Shown one piece after another: positions 6,304 to 23,150 of a DNA stretch of 43,042 nt. Positions within the stretch are counted from its first letter, which is position 1. The number at the start of each line of letters is the position of its first letter. Under the pieces are notes generated by a model, which saw nothing but the letters and a program-made list of their open reading frames with translations, was not told the DNA's origin and did not search any database. The stretch is from a virus: positions 1 to 43,042 of the IMG/VR virus record IMGVR_UViG_3300009413_000016. One strand, 5' to 3'. A program made the translations under genes and the position numbers.

Positions 6304-6349
6304 GTATTTGCCATGTAAAGTAAATTCGACGTCCTTGTCTGAATCATGC

Positions 6350-6613: not shown

Positions 6614-6615
6614 AA

Positions 6616-7605: not shown

Positions 7606-7616
7606 GATTAATCTCC

Positions 7617-8096: not shown

Positions 8097-9235
8097 TATT
8101 TTTTACCTCCTTTCCAGGCGTTACGATTACGCTCAATCATTTTCTGACGAGCATCGATTACAACATCTTTAGGACTATCGTCCTTGTTATGTTGCTGGTT
8201 TAATGCGTCAGTAACAGGGTTAGAAGCCGAACTGGTCGACACGAGAGCATCAAAGCGAGCACGAATATAATCGGCTGATACGCTTTCGATGTCAATATCA
8301 GGGCATGCATCGGCAATAACCTCTTTGCGGATTTGCTCACAATCTTTGTTAGTATATTGAAACTTCGGATTGATTTTCAGAGCGGCATCGCGTGTGGCAA
8401 TGCGATTACCGACCAAAGTGTCGAGCATTTCTGGAGTAGGAACTTTAGCTTTAGCGTCATCCAGTTTCGCTTGTAGCGAATCATTCTGCGCTTTGGCTTC
8501 TTTTTCCTTCTCTTCCATCTCGTCTTCTTTCTTTTTCAGCTCTTCTTCGGCGTCTTCCGCTTTCTTTTCCATGTCGTTGAGGCGCTGCTGCATCTTGGCT
8601 ACAGCTTGTGCCGCCTGGTCTGACATTTCAAAGTCGACGCCATCAATACTTACTAATTTACCCATAATAGGTTCCTCAGGTATTTTGGTTGGTGACTCAT
8701 CGGACACTTTACAAGCTGGGCCGCAGCGTCCATTATCGACTAGAGCAATATGATTGCCCCGTATATTTCTCTGGATGGCATCGTATGTATCACCCTCCGG
8801 AGTAACTCCTGATACCCACTCAATATCTGACTGGTATCCATTTGAAAGTTCTACTTTGCCTTGTTCGATTTTCTTGATAGCGTCGCTGGTAGTAACATAC
8901 AACATCGTTTTTGCGTATATGCCGTCGACGGTAACTTCGGGCCCAGAAAAACCGATTTGGTATTTTTTAGCATTGTCCGCATTTACTAATTCAGATGGAT
9001 GATTATCCGTCATAATTTTATTAGCAAATGAAGCAAGTGACTCATCAGAAAAGACTTCTTCTTTTGGGCGATATACCTTGATAATATCCATAGGATTGCG
9101 GTCTTCAAGACCCATTTCCATGGCTAAGTATTCCTGAATTCCGGTACGCGCTATTCTTGCGGGGACAATAAGGAAGCCTTCGTCAGTATATTTACGTTGG
9201 CTGTCAGTAAGGTTTATGCGGTCTTTGATGTACAT
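8096..9235 (-). CDS. capsid scaffolding protein (DUF2213-like), possibly with prohead protease function
   Basis: Motifs GFL..PARIARTGIQEY, ELSNGY and GNHIALV..GRCG, plus an acidic coiled coil (EEELKKKEDEMEEKEKE). Confidence 0.7.
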   Translation of the reverse strand: MYIKDRINLTDSQRKYTDEGFLIVPARIARTGIQEYLAMEMGLEDRNPMDIIKVYRPKEEVFSDESLASFANKIMTDNHPSELVNADNAKKYQIGFSGPEVTVDGIYAKTMLYVTTSDAIKKIEQGKVELSNGYQSDIEWVSGVTPEGDTYDAIQRNIRGNHIALVDNGRCGPACKVSDESPTKIPEEPIMGKLVSIDGVDFEMSDQAAQAVAKMQQRLNDMEKKAEDAEEELKKKEDEMEEKEKEAKAQNDSLQAKLDDAKAKVPTPEMLDTLVGNRIATRDAALKINPKFQYTNKDCEQIRKEVIADACPDIDIESVSADYIRARFDALVSTSSASNPVTDALNQQHNKDDSPKDVVIDARQKMIERNRNAWKGGKK

Positions 9236-9261
9236 AAAACTTCCTTGAAAAGATTAAAGAA

Positions 9262-9291
9262 ATTATAGTAAGTTGGTTACCAGATGTACAG
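9262..9291 (-). promoter_or_regulatory. promoter-like element CTGTACA-N17-TATAAT upstream of the scaffold gene
   Basis: Minus strand reads gcTGTACAtctggtaaccaacttacTATAAT. AAGGAAG and the ATG at 9235 follow. Confidence 0.45.
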
Positions 9292-10125
9292 CTATATTTG
9301 TATCACTGGCTGAGCTATACACCGGCAATTGATGTCTTCCCCAGGATGTCCAGTATCTTTTGGAGGAGAGTCCCATCTGAACGTTTTTCCGTTATTATCT
9401 TTATGTGATTGGCGAACGTTACCGTCATCCGCTGTTACCCAAACATACTCTTCTATGCCAAGATTCTGCTGTCGTTGTTGGTTGAAGGCTGAATTCAATT
9501 TTGATGTTTGGTCTCGTGCAATAGTGCGAGCTCTATTTTCAGAAACTTTATATGCCTTTCTTATTTCTGATATCAAAGAAGAGGCGTTATTTCCTGTAAC
9601 AGTTCCATTGTAAACGACGTTTTCTACCTTCTTGAGGAACTCTTCTGGAATAGAGCGAATCAAAGCTACATTATCTTGCGTCTTGGCAATCAAAATATCT
9701 TCAAGATTCTCATTTCGAACTATTGACTGCATATTAACGCCAATAGCAGACTCAATAGATTTATAGAATCGCTTCTTATTCTCGTTATCTACCCCTTTAA
9801 CGAACGTACTTGCGACAAATCTAGCCTCAACTCCAATATTGGCATAAGCAGAACGTATGACTGTGAAGGCTCTTTCCAATTCAGAAGCATAAGCGTCGTT
9901 CACATATTCAGCTTCATATTGCTTTAGAATTGGAATAATCTTATTATTGATATCAGCTTTAAGACTGTTCGTTAGGTTCAGAAGAGCTTTCCGGAATTGT
10001 ACTTCGTTCTTCTTCGGATTCTTCACTGGTCGAGCTTTCTTCTTCTTGTTCTTCTTCAGAGGATTCTTGCTCGCTGTTGAGTTCTGATTCAGGGTCAGAG
10101 TTAAAGGCTCCAGATAATCCGGCAT
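9292..10125 (-). CDS. head morphogenesis protein (SPP1 gp7 / Mu F family)
   Basis: C-terminal motif VRQSH...GHPGEDINCRCIAQP. The only canonical start is the ATG at 10125 (GAGGAA upstream), which gives a 167-nt overlap with the portal gene. Confidence 0.75.
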   Translation of the reverse strand: MPDYLEPLTLTLNQNSTASKNPLKKNKKKKARPVKNPKKNEVQFRKALLNLTNSLKADINNKIIPILKQYEAEYVNDAYASELERAFTVIRSAYANIGVEARFVASTFVKGVDNENKKRFYKSIESAIGVNMQSIVRNENLEDILIAKTQDNVALIRSIPEEFLKKVENVVYNGTVTGNNASSLISEIRKAYKVSENRARTIARDQTSKLNSAFNQQRQQNLGIEEYVWVTADDGNVRQSHKDNNGKTFRWDSPPKDTGHPGEDINCRCIAQPVIQI

Positions 10126-11452
10126 TTTCTTCTTCCTCTTCTAATTCTTCGATGTATTTATCGGTAATGTTCTGATAAGTGCCTTTGTCTTTAAGTTGCT
10201 TAGCAACCATGCTTGGCTTAATAACGCCTTGGTCCAAATATACTTGGTCACGAGCGGCATCACGATTGCTCATTTCAGATTCTTGTTGTTCTGTAAGCTG
10301 GAATAAAGAGTTAAATTCGTAAGTAAGAATAGTTTCATCTTCAATGCCAATGTTTTTTGCCATAATCTTATCGAACTTAGAAAGCTTAGGACCATATATA
10401 TTTACTTGGTCTGCACGAATTTTATCGTAATAATTCTTCTGTTCGCCTTCGCCTGTGGAATTTAGACCTTTAGGAGAATCGCCAAATAGGCGCGTAGCAG
10501 GAATATCGGATGCTCCAGAAAGAATCTGATTGAACGTACGGATTAAGTCTGGTAAACCTGAGAAAGTATTAGTCTTATTCTGGAAGTCTTCTTCAGAGTC
10601 CAGCAGGAGCATATTATTAAAGCTCTTAAGTGCTGATGCTAATGAAAAGCGTTTACGCAATAGCTTCTCACCTTCTTCTGATTCCAGATACCCCATTAAA
10701 CCGCGTATTTTAACAACATCGACTACAGCTTCATACACCATGCTGGCTGCGGAATTAGTACAAGTATTAAAGTTAGTAACAGCATCGTAAATTCGGTCAA
10801 GTACTGAATCTGCCCAATATCCATTTCTACGGAATTCATCAAATGGAAGCTTTATTCCATCGAATCGAATCACTCTGCTGTGATGTACTACGACGCTTGT
10901 TTCATTAAAACGATATTCAGTAGGATATCCGTAATTTTCTTTTAATGGATTATGCTGAACTTGGTCTCCGCGTTGGACGCGATGTCGGTCAACTACGGCG
11001 ATATGGCGTAAACTTCCTGGTTTGATAGAGTCAATGTCTAACTCTTCACGAGGGTCTTTGCCATCATCAACTGCGATTATAATAAAAGCTGTACCATACA
11101 ATCGAGCCCATTTATGCGCTTCGTTAAATGCCGCTTTTAAGTTTAATCTTTCTTCTTCTGCTTCAAGCTTTTCTCTCATTTCAGAAGTTAGGTCATCATG
11201 ATTAAAAGAACGCCATTCGCGAGTCATATCATCTGGAATAATGTCAACAATTTTACCAGACACCCAATCCGTGCGATACATAGCATTGAGTTCGTCTTGA
11301 GCGCCATCTTGAGATAGTCGCTTATTATTGACAAATGTACTATGCGCTCGTTTATCTGTCTCAGTACCTAAATTCGCAAGTAAGTTTTCAAGACCATCTT
11401 TTGTCATTCCTAAAACTTTCTCATCGATGATTTCTGCTTCTGTTTGGCTCAT
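9959..11452 (-). CDS. portal protein
   Basis: 497 aa, immediately downstream of the large terminase. Resembles the DUF1073-type portal (recollection). Has an acidic Ser/Glu-rich C-terminal tail. Confidence 0.8.
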   Translation of the reverse strand: MSQTEAEIIDEKVLGMTKDGLENLLANLGTETDKRAHSTFVNNKRLSQDGAQDELNAMYRTDWVSGKIVDIIPDDMTREWRSFNHDDLTSEMREKLEAEEERLNLKAAFNEAHKWARLYGTAFIIIAVDDGKDPREELDIDSIKPGSLRHIAVVDRHRVQRGDQVQHNPLKENYGYPTEYRFNETSVVVHHSRVIRFDGIKLPFDEFRRNGYWADSVLDRIYDAVTNFNTCTNSAASMVYEAVVDVVKIRGLMGYLESEEGEKLLRKRFSLASALKSFNNMLLLDSEEDFQNKTNTFSGLPDLIRTFNQILSGASDIPATRLFGDSPKGLNSTGEGEQKNYYDKIRADQVNIYGPKLSKFDKIMAKNIGIEDETILTYEFNSLFQLTEQQESEMSNRDAARDQVYLDQGVIKPSMVAKQLKDKGTYQNITDKYIEELEEEEENAGLSGAFNSDPESELNSEQESSEEEQEEESSTSEESEEERSTIPESSSEPNEQS

Positions 11453-11500
11453 TATGGCGTTCCTACAATTTTATCAAAATAAATTCTCTATTATCCCAGC

Positions 11501-12997
11501 TTAAGATAATGCGTTTTCAGTGATACCTAATTCGGCATTTACGAGTAAATCTTCAATAGCATCCATAGTTGGGTCAATCTGGTCGTCATGTGCGTGGGTC
11601 ATTAATGGCGTAAACCCTCTGAATTCCTCTTTGTAGTCACTTAACCACGGAGCTTCTGCTGGTAGATGAACATGGCCTGCAGCTATATGAGGAATACAGT
11701 TAAAAGCTCTTTCTACTTTATCTCTGTTTCTCTGGATGTCTTCTACAGGGATAGTCGTTTTAGAATTGATTGTCTGAATAAGAGAAGTACCGCTTGACTT
11801 ATCTTCTATCTTGGCACATTGCACAGGGCGATTATTTGGATGATTCGTGTATCGGTGCTTATTCCAGAAATCTTTGAAATTACGCTCTAATTCTGGAGCT
11901 TCCCATTTACCTCTTAATTGGTCAATAAGATAGATACCTCCTGAACGACTCCATCCCCAACATTGAAATACTGAATAATCGTTATGCTCTTTGGTCTTGG
12001 CCGCAGTATCAGCGTAAATCCGCTTAATGACAATATCGTTAGGCAGCACAGTCCAGTATTTCCACCATTTATCTTTGAACATGCCTCCTCCGATAGGAGC
12101 AGGAATCTGGTGATACTGAGACGCTGTATTATACGGGTCAACTTGAGCCATTACCTCAAGCTGCTCTTTAGAATGCTTCATTTCCCACAGTACGTCGCCA
12201 TCAATTTCGTACTTGATTGGAATACCGTGTGTATATTTCTTAGGATACCATTTCTCTATTGGTCCTTCAGGTATAGGTGTAGGTAATAAGAGATGATGCC
12301 ATTTCTCGCCTGAACCGCCTTTTAGCAAGAATCCAGATGGGTCATCCTCGTGAACCCTCTGCATGATGACAATCATCGGGACAGATTCTAATGCTAGACG
12401 TGACTTGAAGGTAGATGTGAAGCGACGGTTAATCCTATTTCGCGTAGCGTCCGACAACGCGTCCTCTGGTTTAATTGGGTCATCAACGATAAATGCCCCA
12501 GTGAATCCTGATTCCATTCGGCCAGCTCGGAATCCGGTAACTGGACCGCCCGATGATGTAGCATAAACACCGCCGCCTTCTTTCGTGAACCAACGTTTCT
12601 TCGCCGATGTATCAATTCTTATTTCTCGTGGCCATAATTCTTGATACTCGTCTGATTCGACGATGTCACGACTCATCTGAGAATTCAGCAATGCTAAGTC
12701 GTCAGAGTAAGAAAGATGCATGAATTTGGCTTTAGGATTGATTGCCAGACCTCTAGCCATAAATGAAATAACGGCTAGTTCTGTCTTGGTATAACCGGGA
12801 GGTACGTTAATAATGAGCCGATTTATTTCACCGCTGATAACTCGGTCTAATGCATCACAGATTATTCTGTGGTGTTCGTTTACTATTAATTTTACGCCTT
12901 CTCTATGTTTGAAGAAATAGCGTGAGAAGTGAAGATGGGATTCATCAAATACGTATTTTAACGCATTGAGGTTATTTAGGTTATCAGCAATACTCAT
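11501..12997 (-). CDS. terL: terminase large subunit
   Basis: 498 aa. Walker A-like PPGYTKT, Walker B-like AFIVDDP, C-terminal nuclease-like region (IYADTA...HDD). Confidence 0.85.
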   Translation of the reverse strand: MSIADNLNNLNALKYVFDESHLHFSRYFFKHREGVKLIVNEHHRIICDALDRVISGEINRLIINVPPGYTKTELAVISFMARGLAINPKAKFMHLSYSDDLALLNSQMSRDIVESDEYQELWPREIRIDTSAKKRWFTKEGGGVYATSSGGPVTGFRAGRMESGFTGAFIVDDPIKPEDALSDATRNRINRRFTSTFKSRLALESVPMIVIMQRVHEDDPSGFLLKGGSGEKWHHLLLPTPIPEGPIEKWYPKKYTHGIPIKYEIDGDVLWEMKHSKEQLEVMAQVDPYNTASQYHQIPAPIGGGMFKDKWWKYWTVLPNDIVIKRIYADTAAKTKEHNDYSVFQCWGWSRSGGIYLIDQLRGKWEAPELERNFKDFWNKHRYTNHPNNRPVQCAKIEDKSSGTSLIQTINSKTTIPVEDIQRNRDKVERAFNCIPHIAAGHVHLPAEAPWLSDYKEEFRGFTPLMTHAHDDQIDPTMDAIEDLLVNAELGITENALS

Positions 12998-12999
12998 AG

Positions 13000-13392
13000 T
13001 CAGTAATCAAGGTCAAATTCCTTTCTTAAACGCTTTATCTCTAATCTTGATAATTTGCCGGTTACTTCGGCTTTACCCTTCTGAGAGACTTCTATTGCTT
13101 TGCGTTTCGGATGCATGTATTCCATCAGTTGCTTAGCAGCGTCTTGGCTTTTACCAATTTCTACTATTGAGCCCCTGTACTCGGCTTTTATAAGGTCAAT
13201 TAGCTCTTGCCAATCCCAGTCATCCGGCGCAGCTCCTTCATATTCTTCTTCCAGAGCTAAGACTTTTAAGTAAACTTGCGAGACTCTGCGTGGGTCTGTA
13301 CCACCCATAATCTGCGTTAAAAACTCTACCGGGCTTGGGATTTTCAGCTTGTCACATAGTGCCTTAACTTGTGATTCTGCGTTTATATCCAT
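13000..13392 (-). CDS. putative terminase small subunit
   Basis: 130 aa, directly upstream of terL. Assigned by position and size only; no Shine-Dalgarno sequence before the ATG. Confidence 0.5.
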   Translation of the reverse strand: MDINAESQVKALCDKLKIPSPVEFLTQIMGGTDPRRVSQVYLKVLALEEEYEGAAPDDWDWQELIDLIKAEYRGSIVEIGKSQDAAKQLMEYMHPKRKAIEVSQKGKAEVTGKLSRLEIKRLRKEFDLDY

Positions 13393-13430
13393 AGAGTATT
13401 ATACTAGATTAGATTATTTGATTTGTATAT

Positions 13431-13468
13431 AAAAAATCTCTTGACCAGAACAGGCTCCAGCCAAGAGA
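13431..13468 (-). terminator. putative intrinsic terminator downstream of the 242-aa repeat protein gene
   Basis: 7-bp stem tctcttg/caagaga (13437-13443 with 13462-13468), followed on the minus strand by a T6 run (13431-13436). The loop is long (18 nt). Confidence 0.4.
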
Positions 13469-13569
13469 TAAAGGGAACGTCCATGATTTGCAAGCGAGGA
13501 TATAAAGAGCACGCGTGCACGTACGTTATATATCAGAGATTAAATTATGGGAAATACTATTTTCCAAAG

Positions 13570-14298
13570 TTACAATCTGCCAATTGTCCAATACTTTCTT
13601 AACCGAATTTGTTCTTTTAGCATTTCCGTTAATTCATCAATATATAAATCGACATCATCGTCATATTCACCATCATACATATCATTGAACAATTTTACCT
13701 GAGACATGTTAGTATTTATAGAAGCTAACTTTTCTTGGATATATCTTTTTCTTATCAATGATGCCAATTCAAACATGACTTTTCTTTTTGGAAATACTCT
13801 ATATTGCGTTATTTGCATTTTAAGAAGTTCACCAGGTTTTAATCCTTTAACCGGATTTCTTTTAACTTTAATTCTATCTGTGTCAATATTCAATTTACCA
13901 AGTTCTAGCTTTTGTTCTGGTTGAGGTTCGCAAAAATGATTCATATTAATTTCACCATCTATAAAAGGCTCATTATATTTAATATACACTTTTGTTTTTT
14001 TATACACAGAAGGGTCTATCCGCCAATAGCTTCTTTGTTTGATTCCTATTTTTACCATTGCGGCCAATTCATCCATATATAAGTCTACATGGTTATCATA
14101 CTCTCCATTATTTATTCTTTGGTAAATACGTATTTGTGTTATTGTCTTATAAACTGTATGTAAGACTTCTTGCAAATAACGTTTTCTTAAAGCGTTTACT
14201 ATTTCTCTAGTTACCTTTTCACGGGGAAACTCGTCTTCCCACGGCTCTAATTTCATTTTCATCCGGTTTAAACATACTAAGCTGGGGTCATTTTTCAT
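13570..14298 (-). CDS. protein of unknown function with an internal ~70-aa duplication
   Basis: ORF track 13570-14313 uses a TTG start. The ATG at 14298 with GGAG at 14308-14311 is preferred. The two repeats share K.Y.QE, GEYD..VDLY.DEL and R.YW. Confidence 0.7.
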   Translation of the reverse strand: MKNDPSLVCLNRMKMKLEPWEDEFPREKVTREIVNALRKRYLQEVLHTVYKTITQIRIYQRINNGEYDNHVDLYMDELAAMVKIGIKQRSYWRIDPSVYKKTKVYIKYNEPFIDGEINMNHFCEPQPEQKLELGKLNIDTDRIKVKRNPVKGLKPGELLKMQITQYRVFPKRKVMFELASLIRKRYIQEKLASINTNMSQVKLFNDMYDGEYDDDVDLYIDELTEMLKEQIRLRKYWTIGRL

Positions 14299-14409
14299 TT
14301 TCTTAATCTCCAATTAATACTTTTACCATTATAAACTAAAGCACAAAATTCTTAAAATTATTGCTCCCAAAATTAAAGATGTATTAGTGCAGATAATTTT
14401 AATGCCGAC

Positions 14410-14438
14410 TTGTACCACTTAACTTATTGTTTTATATA
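14410..14438 (+). promoter_or_regulatory. promoter-like element TTGTAC-N17-TATATA inside the left arm of the inverted repeat, pointing rightward
   Basis: TTGTAC at 14410-14415, 17-nt spacer, TATATA at 14433-14438. Same -35-like pentamer as the other phage promoters. Confidence 0.4.
14413..14437. repeat. left arm of a 25-bp perfect inverted repeat (taccacttaacttattgttttatat)
   Basis: Exact reverse complement of 14599-14623. Confidence 0.95.
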
Positions 14439-14507
14439 CTAGAAGCATAAGTTTCAAATTAGGTTCACAACGTTTCTCCGTCCTTATATATAAAATATAA
14501 TTCACTA

Positions 14508-14527
14508 TACTGTATAAATATACAGTA
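14508..14527. promoter_or_regulatory. LexA (SOS) box-like palindrome TACTGTATAAATATACAGTA
   Basis: Matches the gammaproteobacterial consensus TACTG(TA)5CAGTA at 19 of 20 positions. It sits within 1 bp of the centre of the 25-bp inverted repeat pair. Confidence 0.6.
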
Positions 14528-14598
14528 CTAAGTGTGTTTTTTATTTTCTTAAAGATTTTATATAGTTAAGAACTTAAGAAAAAGAATAGAATAATAGG

Positions 14599-14623
14599 AT
14601 ATAAAACAATAAGTTAAGTGGTA
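14599..14623. repeat. right arm of the 25-bp perfect inverted repeat; on the minus strand it reads TTGTAT-N19-TATATC, pointing leftward
   Basis: Exact reverse complement of 14413-14437. A 2-nt insertion (ta) just outside the arm alters the promoter-like spacing. Confidence 0.9.
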
Positions 14624-14712
14624 TACAACGTAAAATTAAATTCTCAACGCGGGCCCCTGCTCTTATTCTTTTACCAAAATTAAAACAAATGGCAAAATAA
14701 ATGCATGTTTTA

Positions 14713-14759
14713 GTGTACATCACCAAAGAAGAAGATATAATAGTACCATCATCGAGCAA
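14713..14759 (+). promoter_or_regulatory. early promoter P1: GTGTAC-N17-TATAAT plus conserved leader AGTACCATCATCGAGCAA
   Basis: -35-like 14713-14718, -10 at 14736-14741. A 24-nt stretch (tataatagtaccatcatcgagcaa) is identical to 29991-30014. Confidence 0.65.
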
Positions 14760-14790
14760 CAACGCTTGAACTTAAATAAGGAACTTCGAA

Positions 14791-14964
14791 ATGACTAACT
14801 TAGAAAATGCTAGAAATGAAATCGTTACAATTTTAAAAAATGAAGGAAGAATCGAACTTGCTAACCATGTAAAAGCTAAAAATGAGGATACTCTTATCGT
14901 TGAGCATTTAGAGTATGCTGAACCTCATGAAATCGCTTATACTCTCATCTCTGTTTCTAATTAA
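14791..14964 (+). CDS. 57-aa early protein, unknown function (not in the ORF track, under 60 aa)
   Basis: ATG at 14791 preceded by AAGGAA. Hand translation gives MTNLENARNEIVTILKNEG...SVSN. Flanked by P1 and a terminator. Confidence 0.65.
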   Translation: MTNLENARNEIVTILKNEGRIELANHVKAKNEDTLIVEHLEYAEPHEIAYTLISVSN

Positions 14965-14983
14965 GAGCCTTCGGGCTCTTTCC
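14964..14983 (+). terminator. intrinsic terminator AGAGCC-TTCG-GGCTCT
   Basis: 6-bp GC-rich stem with a TTCG tetraloop, followed by TTTCC. The same hairpin recurs at 18316 and 30336. Confidence 0.6.
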
Positions 14984-15019
14984 TAACATGCATAAATACA
15001 CACATAGGAAACTACTAAA

Positions 15020-15310
15020 ATGCATACCACCGTCATTGCTAAATCTTCAACCTGCCCTAAAACACTCGTACACTACGAAATTCGTAGATTTCAAAGTATA
15101 GAATATTTTGTAGATACTTACCGACACGGCGCTTTCATTGATACCATATTCTGCGAGAGATTAGAAGAAGCTCTTGAAGCCTTCCACCACATCCGCGGAG
15201 ACTTGCCAATTTCGTATCATCTGCCCGGCGTCTTTGATAAATATAGATGCCACGCTAACTCGTCACAAAGTATAATAGATAAACAGTCTCAAATCCGTCC
15301 TCTTCCATAA
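15020..15310 (+). CDS. early protein, unknown function (96 aa)
   Basis: ORF track; AGGAA 9 nt upstream. Confidence 0.6.
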   Translation: MHTTVIAKSSTCPKTLVHYEIRRFQSIEYFVDTYRHGAFIDTIFCERLEEALEAFHHIRGDLPISYHLPGVFDKYRCHANSSQSIIDKQSQIRPLP

Positions 15311-15324
15311 AGGAGTAAATAAGT

Positions 15325-15555
15325 ATGTCTATGCTTATAACTAAGCTACGTGCGCTAGGATTCCACGTGAATGAGCACGAAACAAAAGCTACTGTATACA
15401 AACATGGCGATTATATTCTTTCTTTATCGCGTTATACCAAAAACGATAATTGGAAGTTTTCAGGAGGCTATAGCCTCGATAGGCATATCATAATGATAGC
15501 TGAACGAATTGCATATAATTGGAAAGTCCGAAGAATCTATTTGTGGAGTAAATGA
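15325..15555 (+). CDS. early protein, unknown function (76 aa)
   Basis: ORF track; AAAGGAG upstream. Confidence 0.65.
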   Translation: MSMLITKLRALGFHVNEHETKATVYKHGDYILSLSRYTKNDNWKFSGGYSLDRHIIMIAERIAYNWKVRRIYLWSK

Positions 15556-15558
15556 GAA

Positions 15559-16098
15559 ATGAACAAGATTAAAATCACTTCCAAAGAAACAACCGTATCT
15601 AAATTGATAGATGCCTCCCGTTGGGAAATCTTTCTTTATTTAATCACAAATGGCCGTAAAGGCCGACTGTATCGTATGGTCGAATATCCGGCCAAGATAT
15701 GGCAAACTCCAAGTCATATTAACTGCAGATGCGCAACAACTATGTCTCCTGAACGGTTCAAACGGGAATATTTTGGCGATTTTAAATCGGAGAATCCGAA
15801 TGAATGGACGCACAAAACTAAAAGTGGGTACAGATGTAAAATAGTAGTGCCTGAACCAGATGTTAATGGCATCATTATTGTAATAAATGAACGAGGTGAG
15901 TATATGCGCCATTTTGCTGGTTCCCTGAAAGTGAATCCAAGTGAATCAGAAATACAGGAATTTGCATCGGCTCTAACAAGGCACCCTAACGACCTAGATA
16001 ATATAGCGGAAATATACGCTATATGCCGTAAACCAAATGAATCATGCGAAGAACTTAAAAAGCGCATTAATGCCGCTATAAAAGGAGTAAATAAGTAA
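15559..16098 (+). CDS. early protein, unknown function (179 aa)
   Basis: ORF track; GGAG upstream. Contains H-I-N-C-R-C, the same short motif found in the MuF-like protein. Confidence 0.65.
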   Translation: MNKIKITSKETTVSKLIDASRWEIFLYLITNGRKGRLYRMVEYPAKIWQTPSHINCRCATTMSPERFKREYFGDFKSENPNEWTHKTKSGYRCKIVVPEPDVNGIIIVINERGEYMRHFAGSLKVNPSESEIQEFASALTRHPNDLDNIAEIYAICRKPNESCEELKKRINAAIKGVNK

Positions 16099-16292
16099 TG
16101 TGGACAAAAGAAAAACCAACTAAGCCTGGACTGTACGCATGGCGTCATAACAGTAAAGTACATCGCGAACTTGCACAAGTTTCGACACGCGCAGGAATCC
16201 TAGTTGTGTACTTCACTCACGACTCTCTTAACAGTCAAGAGTTCGTACTCAGTAAAGTTCAAGGCCGTGAATGGCTCAGAATTCCGGAGTAA
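16098..16292 (+). CDS. early protein, unknown function (64 aa)
   Basis: ORF track; AAAGGAG upstream; TAATG overlap with the previous gene. Confidence 0.6.
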   Translation: MWTKEKPTKPGLYAWRHNSKVHRELAQVSTRAGILVVYFTHDSLNSQEFVLSKVQGREWLRIPE

Positions 16293-16304
16293 TCGAGATT
16301 CCTA

Positions 16305-16505
16305 ATGCCGAAAAAGTATAGATATAGGTGTAAGCATTGCCACGAACTTCCTAAAGTTCGAGGTATGCCTTGCACTTCTGGTGGCAAAATTAAAGTAGTA
16401 AAATGCGAATGCCGATGGACGCCTCCCCATTATATATCTTACGCAATATGGATGAGTGAGTACGCCGTCGGCTCAGACCCGATTCAAGAGGAGATGAAAA
16501 TATGA
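16305..16505 (+). CDS. small Cys-rich protein (putative zinc ribbon), 66 aa
   Basis: CKHC...C...CEC cysteine pattern; ATGA overlap with the next gene. Confidence 0.55.
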   Translation: MPKKYRYRCKHCHELPKVRGMPCTSGGKIKVVKCECRWTPPHYISYAIWMSEYAVGSDPIQEEMKI

Positions 16506-16903
16506 CCCAACCATGCATAATTAAGCATGTCATGCAAACAGAAGATAAGAATTGTATGTCGGCGTGTATTACAATGATTACTGGGATTGATATTGACACA
16601 GTAACTAAAGAGTTTCATAAGGAATATTGTGACTGTAATATAGACCCGCACGAATACTTAGCTTATGTAGGAATGCCGTTCAGAAGATGTATGGCCGGAG
16701 AACGCAAGCTAATGCATAATCATGTATATTTTATGTGCGTTCCATCGCTGAATATACAAGGTGGATTGCATGAAGTCGTGGCTCAAATAAATAATGACGG
16801 TACTTGGTATATACTAGACCCCAATATGGGCAAAGAAAATAAAAAAGTATATATTGCTGGACCAGATAAAGATTTAAACCCAGGAATATATATATTCCTT
16901 TAA
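16502..16903 (+). CDS. papain-fold cysteine peptidase (C39-like), 133 aa
   Basis: Q-x5-C (QTEDKNCMSAC) with Gln six residues before the Cys, as in papain-like enzymes. Downstream GGLHEVV and ILDPN supply candidate His and Asp. GAGGAG RBS. Confidence 0.55.
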   Translation: MTQPCIIKHVMQTEDKNCMSACITMITGIDIDTVTKEFHKEYCDCNIDPHEYLAYVGMPFRRCMAGERKLMHNHVYFMCVPSLNIQGGLHEVVAQINNDGTWYILDPNMGKENKKVYIAGPDKDLNPGIYIFL

Positions 16904-16958
16904 CATCGTATGTATTAGAATACGAATTTAAACTTGAAGACATTAAGGCCAGATTATT

Positions 16959-17207
16959 ATGACAATCCAAAAAGTAACAAGTTATAAAGCGTCAGACGGT
17001 ACGTTATTCGATAATTATTCTGACGCGTATGACCATGACGCGGACATTGCTTTTAAAGAATGGTACCAAAAAGATGTGCTGCGGAATCCAGAAGAAGGAA
17101 TTGCCATTTATAATAACGCTGTTACGGCATGGTTACGCCGAAACAAAAATCGTATTATTGACTTCTTAGGTGAACGCGACCCAGAGGAAAAGCAAAATGA
17201 ACAATAA
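16959..17207 (+). CDS. early protein, unknown function (82 aa)
   Basis: ORF track; TAAGG upstream. Confidence 0.55.
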   Translation: MTIQKVTSYKASDGTLFDNYSDAYDHDADIAFKEWYQKDVLRNPEEGIAIYNNAVTAWLRRNKNRIIDFLGERDPEEKQNEQ

Positions 17208-17403
17208 GAAATTCGAAGAAATGCGCGAAGCGCAAGAGCGGCTGAAAGTCGCGTTAAAGCGAAATGCCGAACTTCAGCACAGTTACAAGTGGTTAGAACA
17301 GAAGGTATCAGCGTTAGAAGAACTAGAAGAAAATGTACGCGAGCATTTACGTAGAAACCCAAGCCAACGCGGTTACTTTTATGCCGACGACGAGGAAGGA
17401 TAA
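17197..17403 (+). CDS. coiled-coil early protein (68 aa)
   Basis: ORF track 17170-17403, trimmed to the ATG at 17197 preceded by GAGGAA. Confidence 0.55.
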   Translation: MNNKKFEEMREAQERLKVALKRNAELQHSYKWLEQKVSALEELEENVREHLRRNPSQRGYFYADDEEG

Positions 17404-17404
17404 T

Positions 17405-17602
17405 ATGTCTTGCCAAATTAAAGAAAACTTTGAAAATGACGAAATCGAACTTTGGGTAGATGGCGAATTTCGTGCGGGTTGGAATATGGTAGATATTCCT
17501 AAAGAAATAAAGCCTGTAATAGAAGGCATGCTTGATAAAGCGGTAGAAGCAGGAGAACATAATCATTTTCTAAAAGTTAGGAAACTAATATGTGGAATTT
17601 AA
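17405..17602 (+). CDS. early protein, unknown function (65 aa)
   Basis: ORF track 17333-17602, trimmed to the ATG at 17405 preceded by GGAAGGA. Confidence 0.55.
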   Translation: MSCQIKENFENDEIELWVDGEFRAGWNMVDIPKEIKPVIEGMLDKAVEAGEHNHFLKVRKLICGI

Positions 17603-17811
17603 TCAAGCGGTTCTTCTTTCTTAGATTACCAATTGAGCAACGCCGTTCACCATGGATGCGCGGCCTTTTGTACGCTGAAGAAGTCGGAGTTCAAGAAGCA
17701 ACTGACCAACTTTACAAACATGAGTTTGATGACGATTGCCGGGATTTTGATAAAGGTGTCTATGACTACATCAAACATGAACGCGAACAGTTAGGAGAAA
17801 ATCAAAGATGA
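17590..17811 (+). CDS. early protein, unknown function (73 aa), paralogue of 17808-17978
   Basis: ORF track; AGGAA RBS. Shares SPWM.GLLYAE.VG.Q with the next gene. Confidence 0.6.
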   Translation: MWNLIKRFFFLRLPIEQRRSPWMRGLLYAEEVGVQEATDQLYKHEFDDDCRDFDKGVYDYIKHEREQLGENQR

Positions 17812-17978
17812 TACGAAAATCGCCATGGATGAAAGGCCTACTTTATGCTGAGCATGTAGGAATTCAAAAAGCTAAAGAAAGGCTTTACCAACCTGCAAAA
17901 ACAAGAGATATGCGGGAGTTCCACAAAGGCATCAGAGAATACATTATTTATTGTACAATTGTGCTCAATGCTTTATAA
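17808..17978 (+). CDS. early protein (56 aa, not in the ORF track), paralogue of 17590-17811
   Basis: ATGA overlap, AGGAG RBS. Hand translation gives MIRKSPWMKGLLYAEHVGIQKAKERLYQ... Confidence 0.55.
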   Translation: MIRKSPWMKGLLYAEHVGIQKAKERLYQPAKTRDMREFHKGIREYIIYCTIVLNAL

Positions 17979-17979
17979 T
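17951..17979 (+). promoter_or_regulatory. promoter P4: TTGTAC-N17-TATAAT
   Basis: -35-like 17951-17956, -10 at 17974-17979. The leader carries acatacatatatacGGAGA before the ATG at 18023. Confidence 0.55.
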
Positions 17980-18022
17980 GGTAACATCACCAAGCCAACA
18001 TACATATATACGGAGAAATATT

Positions 18023-18313
18023 ATGGCTAAAGCAGTTAAATACTGGTACGGAAATGACACATTTGGGCGTCAAGTAGAAGTTGCTATGCGCGAAGATGAA
18101 GTGTACTTTGAGCGTCATCAATATCGTCACGAAATTTATGGTACACAAACCACTAAATGGGAACGTCACGAACCTTCTTTTGAAACCTCAACCAGAAACC
18201 AATATTCTGGTGAAGTTACGCGTCATCCTGAGCGCCCAATTATGACGTGGGGTTTTCAACGTCTGACACAATGCAACGAAGCTGGTTCTCGTCTTCGTTT
18301 ACCAAATAACTAA
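18023..18313 (+). CDS. protein of unknown function (96 aa)
   Basis: ORF track 17951-18313, trimmed to the ATG at 18023 preceded by GGAGA. Flanked by P4 and a terminator. Confidence 0.65.
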   Translation: MAKAVKYWYGNDTFGRQVEVAMREDEVYFERHQYRHEIYGTQTTKWERHEPSFETSTRNQYSGEVTRHPERPIMTWGFQRLTQCNEAGSRLRLPNN

Positions 18314-18315
18314 AT

Positions 18316-18340
18316 AAGAGCCTTCGGGCTCTTTTTCTTT
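18316..18340 (+). terminator. intrinsic terminator AAGAGCC-TTCG-GGCTCTT plus T run
   Basis: Stem 18316-18322 with 18327-18333, TTCG loop, followed by TTTTTCTTT. Confidence 0.75.
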
Positions 18341-18352
18341 AGGAGAAAATCA

Positions 18353-18514
18353 ATGAAATTACTTTTTACTGTTTTAGCGTCTTTGCTGTTTATTTATTTT
18401 GGGTACTTAGCTATTGGCCAAGAAAAATACAGCGTGGCTATTATATCTGCTGTTTGCGTTTTACTCGCCGTAGTTATCTACCGCGATGAAAAGAAATGGG
18501 ATGGTGAAAAATGA
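18353..18514 (+). CDS. 53-aa membrane protein with two hydrophobic helices (not in the ORF track)
   Basis: AGGAGA RBS. Hand translation gives MKLLFTVLASLLFIYFGYLAIGQEKYSVAIISAVCVLLAVVIY... ATGA overlap with the next gene. Confidence 0.55.
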   Translation: MKLLFTVLASLLFIYFGYLAIGQEKYSVAIISAVCVLLAVVIYRDEKKWDGEK

Positions 18515-18822
18515 GTATGTTAGTGCTAGTTGAGATATTTGAATCAATTGAAAAAGCAGCAGGACCAGAAGCGCGTATTGATTTTGCTTATAATCGTATT
18601 CAAACACCTGACCGCTCTTGGCCTACAATTACTCTTACCGTTATTTGGCCGAATGCTATCATAAGAAAAACCGAAGCGGATAAGAATTCAGATTGCGTAT
18701 ATCAGTACGACTTCGACGTAGGTGAGATTAAATATTCAATAAGCCAAGAAGCGCTTTACCAAAGAATCATAAACTATATAGCCGATATCCGACTACATTT
18801 ATATCCTAACCAAAAGTCATGA
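18511..18822 (+). CDS. protein of unknown function (103 aa)
   Basis: ORF track. Confidence 0.55.
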   Translation: MSMLVLVEIFESIEKAAGPEARIDFAYNRIQTPDRSWPTITLTVIWPNAIIRKTEADKNSDCVYQYDFDVGEIKYSISQEALYQRIINYIADIRLHLYPNQKS

Positions 18823-18935
18823 CTCTCTGGAATCATTTAGGGTTAATTTGTCTCAAGACGTGTAAGAATATACTCGATAAGCGCCATCATGAGCTTAGGA
18901 TTAACCCTATTTACATCTACGTATAAGGAAAGAAT

Positions 18936-19181
18936 ATGATATCTGTAACATGTAAACGCGATTTACTCCGCTGGTTCGTAGAATTGGTAATTTTGTTTTT
19001 TAGTTTTTCTGTGAGTTATCTAACTTTTGGTTTCTTTTTACCGCTGATTCTGGTAATTGAATACCAAGAGTATCAACTCTGGAAAATCCAGATGCAGATT
19101 ACAATTATCAACCAAAATATTGGCAAATTATCTGAAGCGACAAAAACAGGTATTCGCACTAAAACTCGCGAGGATTTCTAA
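18936..19181 (+). CDS. membrane protein, unknown function (81 aa)
   Basis: ORF track; AAGGAAAG RBS; hydrophobic stretch VELVILFFSFSVSYLTFGFFLPLILVI. Confidence 0.55.
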   Translation: MISVTCKRDLLRWFVELVILFFSFSVSYLTFGFFLPLILVIEYQEYQLWKIQMQITIINQNIGKLSEATKTGIRTKTREDF

Positions 19182-19183
19182 TA

Positions 19184-19417
19184 ATGGCAATTCAGATAAG
19201 ATTAGACATAGCCGTAACTAGCACGCGCCGTTCAGACCCACATATGTTTTATTTTGATGATAAATGTGGAACTGAATTAAGCGTAATGGAAACTAATGCC
19301 GAACGAGCATTCAAAAAAGCGAAGGCTGATTATTCTAGAATTAAGCAGACTAATTATGGTATTCTGTATTTAACGCGCGTATCGCGCATGACTAAAAACC
19401 ATAATTTTCAAGGTTAA
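19184..19417 (+). CDS. protein of unknown function (77 aa)
   Basis: ORF track; GAGGA RBS. Confidence 0.55.
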   Translation: MAIQIRLDIAVTSTRRSDPHMFYFDDKCGTELSVMETNAERAFKKAKADYSRIKQTNYGILYLTRVSRMTKNHNFQG

Positions 19418-19499
19418 AATACTCTGGAAAACTAATATATACACTTAAGAATAGACGTCATATACTGCGGCGTCTTAACACACATATACGGATAGCAAT

Positions 19500-19694
19500 A
19501 TGGCAAACGAAATCAAAAATCAAAACGAGCAATTGTCTCAAGTAAACCACCTCGCCTCTCAAATTTTTGAAAATTCGTCTAAGATTATAGACGAACGATT
19601 CGGTCAGAATTACGCACGAAAGAATCCAAATCTTCTTGCTTCTGTAGTTTCTCTACAAGAAAAACTATTCGCACATCAAAATAAAACAGCTTAA
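19500..19694 (+). CDS. protein of unknown function (64 aa)
   Basis: ORF track; leader acacatatacGGA resembles the leaders of P3 and P4. Confidence 0.5.
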   Translation: MANEIKNQNEQLSQVNHLASQIFENSSKIIDERFGQNYARKNPNLLASVVSLQEKLFAHQNKTA

Positions 19695-19712
19695 CGCATT
19701 TAAGGAATACGA

Positions 19713-22106
19713 ATGGCCATTCGCAGACACAAGGCTATTGTATCTTTAGGTACGTCTGTTTATAACAACAAAATAACACAGAAAGAAATTACGATTTCTC
19801 AGTTATTTAAACGACTATCAGAGCCAAATAGCCAAACTAAAAAAGACGGTAAGTATTTTATATTCGCGTCATTTGAAGGAAATGAGCGAAATGCTAAAAC
19901 GATAAAAGAGCATTATGGCGCAGTCATAGACTTAGATGATACAAGTCTCACATTAACCAAGATTAAAAAGAAGTTTGCTAAATACCCGCATTGTATATAC
20001 AGCACACATTCACATAAGGCAAAAGGTAAAGGCGATAGATTCAGATTAGTCTTACCATATAAACAGCCAATAGATAATACGACTCACGTCGAAACTATGC
20101 TTTACCTTATGGATACGCTTGGCGCTAAAGATGTGGATTTATCTTCTAAAGCTTTATCTCGGCCGATGTATCTTCCTGCAGTTCATCCCGACAGAAAAGG
20201 AACATTTGAGTATTTCTCCAATTTAGACGGATTATTCTTTAATCCTCTAAACCAGAATATTCGAGACCAAGTTGCTCAACTTCGTTTTGAACTAGATGAA
20301 AATGCTCTTGCTTCTTCTGAAGCTCCGTTTGACCCGAATACGGACGTAGAAGAAGGCGGACGAAATGATGCTTTAGCCCGGTTCATAGGTAAAACAATAA
20401 AAACAGGAATGGCTGTAGATGAAATTCTACCTATGGTCGAATCTTGGAATCAGATTAAACTTAGCCCTCCGCTTAGCGACAAAGAAGTCAAAACGATATT
20501 TAACTCTATTGTTAATTCTCATAAGAGAAATCACGGAGATTTAGTATGGGGTTATGATGAAATAATATCGAGAATAGATAAGAGCAAAGATATGAGCTCT
20601 GACTTCGACCATATTCTCGATATTATCTGTACTGCTATTGCTAAGAATAAACTTTCTAAAGTAAAAGTCGAATTAATAGTAGATAAACTCAGCAAAAAGT
20701 CTAAAATTGGCAAGCGTACAATTCAGAAAGAAATCACTTCTAAAGAATTAGAACTAGCCGGTAAACTTGAAGAATCTAATGAGGAAGGATTTGAGTCCGC
20801 TGCTAATGCTTTAAAAGAAGATTTCAAAAAATGGGTGTACGTTGCTTCTGATGACCGAGTATATAACCTAAAAACAGGTGAGTATTATAAGCGTGAAGCT
20901 TTCTCAGCCATGTTCGCAAATCCTAATGTTGAAGGCTCTTTGTTTGCGATGATTATGAAATATAATCTGATGAAGAAAGTGTCACGGTTAGAGTTTGACC
21001 CGGCAGAAGCAGAAGTGTATATTCGCGGTGGTGTTAAATACGCTAATACTTATATTTACCCTGACATCTTTCCTTTACCCGGTTCTATTCTTCCAGTGAT
21101 AAAGCATTTTGAATACTTAATACCAGATGAGTATGAGCGCAAAATACTATTGGACTTTATTGCACATTTAGTTCAATTCCCAGGAATCAAAATCAGATGG
21201 ATGCCGGTTATCAAAGGTGGTAAAGGTATCGGTAAAACGATTATTGCGGAAAAAATCATTCTGCCTATAATCGGATTCACTAATTTCGGTAAAGTGAATA
21301 ATGAGGTAATTAAATCCGACTTTAACGCTTGGCAATTAGACAAACAGCTGGTGGTCTTTGAGGAACTTGATATTGGCGCAAATCAGAAAGAGAAAGAGCA
21401 GCTCACTGATAGACTCAAATCGTTTATTACAGATAATATTCTTACTGCACACAGAAAAGGACTAGACCCGTACGATACTATCAACAAGGCCAATTCTCTG
21501 GCTTTTACGAATAAAGATGATGCGATAATTATCACCGCAGATGAGCGTCGATTCTGTATGATTCGTACAGATGTAAAACCACAGAAGGATGAATACTATC
21601 AGCGGTTAGCGAATTTTGCTGATAAGAATTTAAGCCAAATATATTACTTTTTTATGGAACGAGATTTATCCGACTTTTCGCCTCTACGAGCTCCTGAAAC
21701 TGACTATACGAAAGAAGTTAAAGCGCTATCTATGGGATGGCCAGGTTCAATCGTTAACGCGTGGATACAAGACCCAAGCCATCCTATTCATAAAGCCGGA
21801 TGCGTGAGTAATACTCAAGTAGTAGATTTTGTACGAGCAGAGTCCACCGGCCGTTATCGGTCATTAGCAGAAGACTTACAAAGCCCGGGTTCCAGCCAAG
21901 CGAAAAAGCTTTACTATACTTTGCGAAACTTCGGCTTTTCTAAGTATGAAAATCCGAGCAGCAATGATGGAAGAATACGCATAAATGGGAAACTTGAAAC
22001 AGTGTGGCTAATGCCAGAATCTGGACTAGAGAAGTCTGCGTCTAAATTAGTTTTGCGTAAATTACGCCAAATAAAAATACGGGATGATAATTGGGATGAA
22101 GGTTAA
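19713..22106 (+). CDS. bifunctional primase (prim-pol type) / SF3 helicase
   Basis: N-terminal VIDLDD and STHSH motifs. PriCT-like GGRNDALARFIGK. Walker A GGKGIGKT, Walker B LVVFEELD. Confidence 0.8.
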   Translation: MAIRRHKAIVSLGTSVYNNKITQKEITISQLFKRLSEPNSQTKKDGKYFIFASFEGNERNAKTIKEHYGAVIDLDDTSLTLTKIKKKFAKYPHCIYSTHSHKAKGKGDRFRLVLPYKQPIDNTTHVETMLYLMDTLGAKDVDLSSKALSRPMYLPAVHPDRKGTFEYFSNLDGLFFNPLNQNIRDQVAQLRFELDENALASSEAPFDPNTDVEEGGRNDALARFIGKTIKTGMAVDEILPMVESWNQIKLSPPLSDKEVKTIFNSIVNSHKRNHGDLVWGYDEIISRIDKSKDMSSDFDHILDIICTAIAKNKLSKVKVELIVDKLSKKSKIGKRTIQKEITSKELELAGKLEESNEEGFESAANALKEDFKKWVYVASDDRVYNLKTGEYYKREAFSAMFANPNVEGSLFAMIMKYNLMKKVSRLEFDPAEAEVYIRGGVKYANTYIYPDIFPLPGSILPVIKHFEYLIPDEYERKILLDFIAHLVQFPGIKIRWMPVIKGGKGIGKTIIAEKIILPIIGFTNFGKVNNEVIKSDFNAWQLDKQLVVFEELDIGANQKEKEQLTDRLKSFITDNILTAHRKGLDPYDTINKANSLAFTNKDDAIIITADERRFCMIRTDVKPQKDEYYQRLANFADKNLSQIYYFFMERDLSDFSPLRAPETDYTKEVKALSMGWPGSIVNAWIQDPSHPIHKAGCVSNTQVVDFVRAESTGRYRSLAEDLQSPGSSQAKKLYYTLRNFGFSKYENPSSNDGRIRINGKLETVWLMPESGLEKSASKLVLRKLRQIKIRDDNWDEG

Positions 22107-22425: not shown

Positions 22426-22543
22426 AAAGATAATTGGATAATAATAAGAAATTATGCAATTATTTAGTTTACTCAACCTGCGTTTAAGTCTACTATAATT
22501 ATGCTTTTACGCAAAAACTTAATTTAACAAAGGAAATTTTCAA

Positions 22544-23095: not shown

Positions 23096-23122
23096 GTAGT
23101 AATTTACCGATTTTGAAAGTTC

Positions 23123-23150
23123 AAAAAGGCGGGCTTTTGCTCGCCTTTTT
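23123..23150. terminator. intrinsic terminator (bidirectional type)
   Basis: AAAAA-GGCGGGC-TTTT-GCTCGCC-TTTTT; 7-bp stem including one G-U pair. Confidence 0.75.

Follow-up and report, generated by a model that had tools for sequence, protein, structure and literature searches.

We analyzed a viral DNA of 43,042 nucleotides (IMG/VR record IMGVR_UViG_3300009413_000016, positions 1 to 43,042; the whole of this stretch is hereafter called the window), and found that the gap between its two divergent gene arms holds a dyad-symmetric element with a LexA-like (SOS) box at its center. The element has a core of 211 bp (14413-14623, i.e., two inverted-repeat arms and everything between them). Its central 20-bp palindrome, TACTGTATA-AA-TATACAGTA (14508-14527), agrees with the LexA box consensus at 19 of 20 positions; judged by its sequence, it is a near-consensus LexA-type box, and the resemblance is statistically real. 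In temperate phages, plasmids, integrons and colicin operons, LexA boxes are a familiar means of tying induction to DNA damage. Such boxes on mobile elements are known, as are dyad origins and control regions; what is new is a near-consensus LexA-type box at the geometric center of a dyad flanked by sites of the integration host factor (IHF) type, in a phage without lysogeny genes.

The reading that we favor, with a probability of roughly 0.4, is that the element is a bidirectional control hub (a replication origin and/or an early-late switch), in which host LexA would be the SOS-sensitive part. It should be noted that an origin and a transcription switch are inseparable on these data, and need not exclude each other. 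If the reading is true, a strictly lytic phage senses the SOS state of its host, perhaps timing replication or the early-late switch. For an uncultured clade of marine myoviruses, the dyad also offers a specific candidate for the origin or control hub. Should LexA fail to bind, what is left is an ordinary origin or regulatory region of a phage, with a coincidental palindrome. A first-pass annotation of this DNA had called an SOS box unexpected at this place, and we agree, since the phage looks to be of a virulent type.

The central palindrome and the surrounding dyad

The 20-bp palindrome, TACTGTATAAATATACAGTA, is centered at 14517.5, which is 0.5 bp from the center of the inverted repeat (14518.0); the first-pass annotation had put it within 1 bp of the symmetry center. 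The match to TACTG(TA)5CAGTA that it had reported at 19 of 20 positions is likewise correct: position 10 alone deviates, and both 9-nt half-sites are perfect. This consensus is that of Gamma- and Betaproteobacteria and may not be the consensus of the host. No other site in the window comes within three mismatches of the palindrome (0.01 expected), and we estimate the chance of a full half-site arising in an A+T-rich palindrome at ~1e-5. LexA of Gamma- and Betaproteobacteria recognizes CTGT-N8-ACAG. This pattern occurs twice in the window, compared to 0.34 expected, and only the copy at 14508-14527 has a spacer made entirely of A and T. The annotated LexA site of P7 humD, TACTGTATAAATGAACAGTA, is identical to the window box at 18 of 20 positions, and the window box is the nearer of the two to the consensus. 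The relatives of the tail fiber and tail sheath proteins all come from phages that infect Gamma- or Betaproteobacteria.

The palindrome is embedded in a much larger symmetric structure. The two arms of the inverted repeat (14413-14441 and 14595-14623) are 29 nt long, 97% complementary and separated by 153 nt; within them, 14413-14437 and 14599-14623 are exact reverse complements of 25 nt, as the first-pass annotation had stated and as both the sequence and a repeat search confirm. Apart from one local palindrome of 18 nt at 36177-36200, this is the only inverted repeat in the window that is at least 18 nt long with its arms within 600 bp. The ungapped dyad score is maximal at 14518.0, where 59 of 110 pairs are complementary, compared to a background of 28.3 +/- 4.8, and the single-stranded 211-bp core folds at -37.4 kcal/mol (z = -7.7). 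The symmetry is imperfect beyond the central 20 bp. Sites of two further types are arranged symmetrically around the box. Each arm carries the IHF-like sequence AAACAATAAGTTA, on the minus strand in the left arm (14420-14432, centered at -92 bp) and on the plus strand in the right arm (14604-14616, centered at +92 bp); it is one mismatch away from the IHF consensus WATCAANNNNTTR. Closer to the center, there are the only two GTT-N3-AAC sites of the element, placed at -51 and +51 bp, i.e., the palindromic site GTTCACAAC (14463-14471) and the AGTT-N3-AACT palindrome AGTTAAGAACT (14564-14574). AGTT-N3-AACT occurs nowhere else in the 43 kb, and the copy here equals a site that is repeated in the related locus L015. 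The center of the element (14480-14600) is A+T-rich, with 19% G+C compared to 40.5% for the genome. Scans of the gap for the Fis consensus and for GATC gave nothing relevant to the element.

The strongest promoter-like sequences of the gap lie outside the dyad and point outward. A consensus scan found a sigma-70-type element, TTAAGA-16-TATAAT, on the minus strand at 14328-14355 (10/12), reading into the packaging arm, and TGTACA-16-TATAAT on the plus strand at 14714-14741 (10/12), reading into the early arm. Both are conserved among close strains: every base of 14328-14355 is invariant (alignment A1), and the hexamers of 14714-14741 are kept in the strain loci L203 and L205, with changes in the spacer. 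The second element belongs to a recurrent class. The pattern TGTACW-N16-TATAAT (or TACAAT) is found in intergenic gaps at 9262-9290 on the minus strand and at 14714-14741, 17952-17979, 29969-29996 and 30384-30411 on the plus strand; the copies always point along the genes, and the pattern appears, by its sequence and placement, to be the standard promoter type of this phage.

The arms of the repeat contain promoter-like hexamers that point inward, and these stand where the first-pass annotation had placed them, with the spacers that it gave: TTGTAC-17-TATATA on the plus strand (14410-14438, with TTGTAC at 14410-14415 and TATATA at 14433-14438; it can also be read as TGTACC-16-TATATA) and TTGTAT-19-TATATC on the minus strand (14598-14628, with the reverse complements of TTGTAT at 14623-14628 and of TATATC at 14598-14603). 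Neither was listed by the promoter consensus scan, and the final T is missing from both -10 hexamers. The TGTACC-N16-TATATA version is a near-member of the promoter class of the phage; therefore, weak inward transcription is possible. The promoter-like piece nearest to the box is a lone TATAAT (14496-14501) without a -35 hexamer. Taken together with the IHF-like sequences, the 25-bp arms seem better explained as paired IHF-type sites than as promoters.

Close strains, related lineages and T5-like phages

For comparison at short distance, we used close strains, defined as contigs that carry the protein P0001; their flanking genes are 92-94% identical to those of the window. The core element is 94% identical in L203 and L205, with seven of the differences falling in 14442-14458 and the remainder of the core being ~97% identical. 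The repeat arms (100%), both GTT-N3-AAC sites (the left one, GTTCACAAC, being kept in the L203 group), the palindrome arms and the hexamers of both outward promoters are unchanged. The center of the palindrome (14517-14518) reads AA in the window, whereas L203-L206, read in the same orientation, have TT (L203 ~2282-2283); this exchange leaves the 9-bp arms and the 19/20 match to the consensus intact. From the sequences, the AA/TT flip looks like a micro-inversion of a hairpin loop, and not like two separate substitutions.

Many contigs end in or close to the element. On the TerL (large terminase subunit) side, four of the ten contigs read end at 14477, 14478, 14478 and 14488; on the early side, one contig that is 98.4% identical starts at 14512. 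In the L203 strains, the breaks are at ~14437 and ~14626, with L206 stopping at the outer edge of an arm and L207 at the inner edge of the opposite arm. Similar breaks are seen farther away, where L022 starts 9.5 nt from the dyad center of L002 (L002 4791) and L088 starts 42 nt from that of L015 (L015 4709). Among ~160 TerL-related loci, ~30 contigs stop in the 2 kb upstream of TerL. The element is crossed without a break by at least nine contigs. The clustering of contig ends could be due to physical DNA ends, to loss of coverage in A+T-rich DNA or to mosaic boundaries between strains. Separately, one low-coverage contig (L086) begins with 32 unrelated bases (L086 1-32, compared to 14698-14729 of the window) upstream of the -10 hexamer of the early promoter, and is otherwise 100% identical; this points either to a junction between mosaic pieces or to a chimeric assembly.

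Four uncultured lineages, represented by L001 and L015 (75% identity of TerL), L002/L022 (72%) and L169 (60%), likewise have a divergent gap ahead of their packaging genes, and in each of them the gap forms a large, imperfect dyad. In L001, the nested arms measure 59 and 35 nt (center 1318), L015 has three nested pairs of arms (center 4666), L169 has arms of 77 nt (center 3274), and the dyad of L002 is centered at 4781.5. The exact IHF consensus, WATCAANNNNTTR, is present in all four gaps of ~450 bp, with one of the two hits of the whole locus in L001, two of four in L002, two of five in L015 and two of two in L169, at positions that correspond to the arms of the window. The AGTT-N3-AACT site occurs four times in L001 and twice in L015, where there are two further GTT-N3-AAC sites; all of these lie inside the dyads of the gaps, in symmetric pairs. 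Each lineage also has a short central palindrome, the sequence of which differs from one lineage to another, e.g., ATTGGTAACCAAT in L015 and TACAGTACT-AGAGA-AGTATTGTA in L001. The dyads of L001 and L015 are flanked by related motifs, AGTGTACT-N17-TATAAT or TAGAAT, and the outer arms can be read as back-to-back promoters that point outward (TTCATA-16-AATAAT and TGTACT-17-TAGAAT). Genes specific to each lineage, taking up 0.3-1.8 kb, stand between the dyad and the small terminase subunit (TerS). The CTGT-N8-ACAG pattern with an A/T spacer is rare across 1.63 Mb of related loci. Thus, the symmetric dyad layout is what is conserved, and the LexA-type center is specific to one species-level lineage. 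Seen in this comparison, the LexA-type center was probably acquired as an SOS-sensitive component. The first-pass annotation had pointed to conservation in related phages as a check, and the outcome is divided: strains of 92-94% identity have the box, and lineages at 60-75% identity of TerL lack it.

The palindrome reappears in an unrelated group. The 22-mer TACTGTATAAATATACAGTACT is identical in T5-like virulent phages of Escherichia, exact 20- to 21-mers are present in T5-like phages of Salmonella, Klebsiella, Yersinia and Proteus, and Vibrio phage Athena has an exact match of 19 nt (L211 401-419) with a degenerate second copy (~474-492). There are 1,166 matching records, 872 of them with at least 99% identity over the matched stretch. 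The records have 2-8 copies each, and where the terminal repeats are annotated, the copies fall in their non-coding part. In Escherichia phage chee24, for example, the palindrome (MF431730 9364-9385; L209 1201-1222) stands just after two DnaA boxes, and in Athena it adjoins three. The 22-mer is kept across distant hosts; therefore, a shared host protein is favored over a phage protein as its ligand. A dissection of the injection-stop (iss) region of T5, with its IRD'spacerIRC' arrangement, does not mention LexA or SOS (bioRxiv 10.1101/866236), and the literature that we searched contained no other paper that links T5-like phages to a LexA site.

The favored reading and its rivals

In the favored reading, the core (14413-14623) would be a platform for the assembly of a protein-DNA complex. 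The two gene arms would be driven mainly by the outward promoters at 14355-14328 (minus strand) and 14714-14741 (plus strand), and the A+T-rich center would be folded by IHF-type bends together with a site-specific protein that binds GTT-N3-AAC. In this lineage, the center reads as a high-affinity LexA operator of the Gamma- and Betaproteobacterial kind. Host LexA would occupy the center of the dyad in undamaged cells and leave it upon SOS induction, and melting of the hub, or read-through across it, would then respond to DNA damage. The features suggestive of an origin are the center with 19% G+C, the paired repeats, the IHF-type sites, the minimum of the cumulative GC skew near 15 kb and a primase-helicase gene 5 kb downstream, the product of which is a candidate for the origin-binding initiator. 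Those suggestive of a switch are the position of the element, the promoter-like arms in the relatives and the operator-like palindromes. A replication origin had been mentioned in the first-pass annotation as an alternative; it is plausible on these features, and forms a part of the reading favored here.

Several observations weigh against this reading. The CTGT-N8-ACAG box is absent from the gaps of all lineages at 60-75% TerL identity; therefore, the conserved function of the element cannot be LexA binding. L001 shares with the window the 14-mer AATATACAGTACTA, which contains one LexA half-site and its flank, but the 14-mer is paired there in the opposite way and makes an inside-out palindrome. 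The symmetry of the window is also the less elaborate one, with two GTT-N3-AAC sites compared to five in L001 and four in L015, and the equivalent gap of the closest cultured relative, Pseudomonas phage KPP23, has no dyad. The box is 153-187 bp away from the best promoters and overlaps no good promoter. As to an origin, the scan found no DnaA boxes in the gap, and the GC-skew minimum coincides with the switch in gene orientation, which confounds it. The piling up of contig ends inside the element fits a packaging or genome-end site. Finally, the relative L169 (60% TerL identity) was found in a metagenome-assembled genome bin labeled Alphaproteobacteria, although the binning of a phage contig is weak evidence. 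Alphaproteobacterial LexA binds a different motif.

The most serious rival is a packaging or genome-end site of the cos or pac kind, in which TerS would bind the GTT-N3-AAC sites, an IHF-induced bend would act as in lambda cosB, terminase would nick the central palindrome, and the likeness to a LexA box would be secondary. The element does stand upstream of the packaging genes, 1.1 kb from the probable TerS gene with an orphan gene in between. The contig ends cluster in independent assemblies and also near the dyad centers of L002 and L015, and the ~30 contigs that end shortly upstream of TerL fit the same explanation. Furthermore, the probable TerS tracks the type of site, with 64-66% identity in the lineages that have AGTT/AACT sites, compared to 37% in L169, whose repeats differ. 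However, the breaks are scattered (14437, 14477-14488, 14512 and 14626), at least nine contigs span the element, and the breaks adjoin the DNA richest in A+T and the mosaic boundaries between strains, either of which breaks assemblies. For a cos site, binding sites on a single side suffice, and no two-sided dyad is called for; the lineage-specific genes separate the dyad from TerS; and KPP23 has a homolog of the probable TerS without having the dyad. On balance, we hold a packaging site to be unlikely. A more specific form of genome end, in which the dyad would be a direct terminal repeat, was rejected, as the contig ends in the window strain leave no overlap between the TerL side (14477-14488) and the early side (start at 14512). 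A hairpin telomere processed by a protelomerase was rejected as well: no protelomerase was found among the open reading frames (ORFs) tested, and the symmetry is imperfect outside the central 20 bp.

Alternatively, the central palindrome could be the site of a dimeric phage protein, or a cruciform or hairpin, and its likeness to a LexA box could be incidental. A palindrome that differs between lineages at the same center is what co-evolution of a protein and its site would give, the 14-mer that L001 pairs differently and the distance of the box from any good promoter agree with this, and the AA/TT flip suggests that a cruciform or hairpin forms in vivo. Against it, a match at 19 of 20 positions with perfect 9-nt half-sites is very unlikely to arise by chance, the 22-mer is conserved in T5-like phages that have no obvious protein in common with this phage, which points to a shared host factor, and no candidate phage DNA-binding protein was identified in the families scanned. 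We consider this possibility rather unlikely.

The first-pass annotation had proposed that the repeat arms are face-to-face promoters around the box, resembling the switch of coliphage 186; in such a scheme, the two arm promoters would converge over ~150 nt, and LexA at the midpoint would gate both of them, as in the 186/P2 type. Part of this proposal stands: the hexamers are present, the left element resembles the promoter class of the phage, and the related strains have kept the arms unchanged (100%). However, both -10 hexamers are poor, and the right element has a spacer of 19 nt and a -10 of TATAAC in the L203 strains. The arms are IHF-like and correspond to the IHF-consensus sites of the relatives, the promoter-like arms of L001 and L015 point outward, and better promoters point outward in the window as well. 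The box would be at about +63 from the proposed inward start sites, which is not a classical position for a LexA operator (about -40 to +20). The likeness to the 186 switch was not borne out, as no genes for CI, Apl/Cox, integrase or a Tum-like protein were found among the ORFs tested. Gating of convergent promoters thus seems to us quite improbable.

Two further readings carry little weight. The 25-bp repeats have a length and spacing typical of invertible promoters, and two Logan contigs (L206 and L207) break exactly at the edges of the arms, so a recombinase might be imagined to flip the 153-bp segment. However, no recombinase was found in any tested ORF, and the spanning contigs (the window, L080/L085, L203, L204 and L205) differ in the central dinucleotide only. 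Because all of them share one orientation of the asymmetric interior, inversion of the whole segment is rejected, and a switch of this kind is very improbable. A bidirectional intrinsic terminator formed by the palindrome or by the long repeat, another suggestion of the first-pass annotation, fares still worse. The palindrome can form a hairpin, which is followed by a T-run (14536-14541); its stem consists of A+T only, without a G+C-rich core (-5.5 kcal/mol, z = -1.95), and the terminator scan did not pick it up. The terminator is excluded because the genes diverge, so that no transcript needs to end here, and because there is no G+C-rich stem.

Genome context and known systems

The window (1-43042) is a complete, circularly assembled phage genome of ~43 kb, with an exact terminal overlap of 98 bp. 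Both of its ends (1-124 and 42940-43042) lie inside a 39-bp tandem repeat, with ~3 copies per end, at the boundary of the tail-gene region; this and the 98-bp overlap indicate a circular assembly that was cut within a repeat. By gene content, it is a small marine myovirus of an apparently virulent type, and the identical or near-identical contigs come from marine metagenomes. The minus strand carries all structural and packaging genes (34762-42941, continuing through 1-14313), and the plus strand carries all early and replication genes (14791-34673). With this layout, the gap at 14.31-14.79 kb (14314-14790, with arm starts at 14298/14313 on the minus strand and 14791 on the plus strand) is the sole point of divergence, and the ORF maps thereby bear out the description of the element as a hinge between two gene arms. 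Searches of PHROGs, Pfam and NCBIfam detected no integrase, repressor, antirepressor, recombinase or protelomerase among the ORFs tested, in accordance with the first-pass annotation, which had noted the lack of the first three.

The structural genes, identified with PHROGs and Pfam, include those for the tail sheath (2674-4143), the baseplate (38546-41708) and the portal (9959-11452), all on the minus strand, together with a major head protein and a protease; an endolysin gene is also present. TerL (11501-12997, minus strand) matches phrog_38 (E = 3e-112) and Terminase_6C. Directly upstream of it, a gene for 130 amino acids (aa) on the same strand (13000-13392) encodes the probable TerS. This protein is 36-66% conserved in all relatives, including KPP23; it had no PHROGs or Pfam match above the cut-off, and a sequence search of PDB gave nothing meaningful. 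The packaging arm begins with a gene for an orphan protein of 242 aa (13570-14298, minus strand), which contains an internal duplication (residues ~30-95 and ~175-240). Only two clusters of homologs were found among 5.8 billion proteins, and the protein is restricted to the lineage that carries the LexA-type box. It had no family or PDB match and no relatives in IMG/VR, and its AlphaFold model is unusable (mean predicted local distance difference test score of 39).

The early arm starts with an ORF of 57 aa (14791-14964, plus strand), for which PHROGs and Pfam gave no known family. The primase-helicase (19713-22106, plus strand) combines PriCT_1 with a DUF5906/VapE-like superfamily 3 NTPase and is of the P4/D5 type. 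Among the related contigs, only the one that carries L002 yielded a relative of it (69% identity). The primase-helicase is part of a T7-style replication set, along with an exonuclease, a gp2.5-like single-stranded DNA-binding protein, PolA (25395-27413) and a helicase. For about 20 small early ORFs, PHROGs, Pfam and NCBIfam gave no match; a Pfam scan of ten small ORFs (16098-23095) gave nothing for nine of them, and nine of the ten proteins tested against NCBIfam had no match. One small ORF (22544-23095, plus strand) contains 11.5 perfect copies of GAAGAC (22862-22930), which encode an acidic Glu/Asp repeat, and its C-terminus weakly resembles the S13-like H2TH and actinobacterial-type IHF DNA-binding domains (E = 7.6e-4, which falls short of the cut-off). 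Scans found no tRNA in the window and no Rfam family either in the whole window at the gathering threshold or in 14200-14900 at E <= 1. A DNA similarity search with 13500-15600 against 50,697 phage records returned no match.

The closest cultured relative, KPP23, has TerL and PolA proteins that are 63% and 48% identical to those of the window. It is a virulent Pseudomonas phage, and the paper that describes it has no information on the ends of its genome (PMC4031330).

A separate peculiarity of the genome is the complete absence of GATC, of which a Markov model predicts 139 copies in the window; no other 4-bp palindrome is depleted. GATC is also absent from L080 and from the 92-94% identical strains L203-L206, and the relatives L001, L002, L015 and L169 have normal numbers of it (29-56 per 10-13 kb). 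The pattern suggests that a restriction system recognizing GATC in the host of this lineage exerts strong selection, or else that the phage has a GATC-cutting enzyme; it could help to identify the host. The end of the early arm (27438-27800 and 31626-34673, plus strand) has a cluster of nucleotide-metabolism genes, namely, MazG-like pyrophosphatases, a pyrophosphohydrolase-kinase fusion, a thymidylate-synthase-like protein and a dCMP deaminase. This cluster hints that the phage DNA may contain a modified base, perhaps tied to the absence of GATC.

The element can be compared to several known systems, each of which resembles it in part. The face-to-face promoters of 186/P2 (pR/pL or Pe/Pc) share with it the two inward promoter-like elements and, in principle, convergent overlapping transcripts, but the -10 hexamers of the window are poor, and the CI, Apl/Cox and integrase genes were not found in it. 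In 186, LexA acts at p95 of tum, and not between pR and pL. The cos site of lambda, which is composed of cosN, cosB with the R sites of gpNu1, and the IHF site I1, likewise lies upstream of terminase and has IHF-type sites, repeats and a symmetric center, whereas the window element is two-sided, is followed by a 0.7-kb orphan gene before TerS, has an A+T-only center and is spanned by many contigs.

Among origins, dyad elements between divergent promoters are known in viruses (oriS and oriL of herpes simplex virus 1, the origin of simian virus 40), and combinations of iterons with IHF sites are known from the origin of lambda, ori/crr of P4, R6K and pSC101. These share with the window an A+T-rich center, inverted pairs of initiator-type repeats on both sides, putative sites for host bending proteins, a divergent position and a P4/D5-type primase-helicase nearby; they differ in that the window has no DnaA boxes and in that none of them has a central LexA box. 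In the A2c/A2b/A3 region of phi29, a virulent phage, divergent early and late promoters are controlled by p4 and p6, and dyad sites fold a nucleoprotein hairpin. No p4- or p6-like protein was identified in the window, where IHF-type and LexA-type sites are found instead.

The LexA sites of P1/P7 humD, of tum p95 in coliphage 186 and of rstR/rstA in CTXphi have the same CTGT-N8-ACAG pattern with an A/T spacer, and the box of CTXphi lies in a divergent intergenic control region, as that of the window does. However, these boxes belong to temperate or plasmid-like elements and overlap a defined promoter, whereas the window phage has no lysogeny genes, and its box stands away from promoters within a 211-bp dyad. 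The T5-like phages (Demerecviridae) are a counterpart of another kind: as in the window, the palindrome is found in a virulent phage, in non-coding, repeat-rich DNA and near sites for host proteins. Their copies differ in having no local dyad center, in lying within 10-kb terminal repeats and in being accompanied by DnaA boxes and not by IHF-type sites, and the phages are unrelated. It could be proposed that lytic phages use host LexA in non-coding architectural DNA (an origin, a genome end or a first-injected region) and not as a promoter repressor, a generalization to which we attach a low probability. If it holds, phages that lack a lysogeny module would sense damage to the host DNA directly. 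The copies in the T5 family suggest a possible wider habit of lytic phages, which can be tested with T5 in E. coli, a standard laboratory system.

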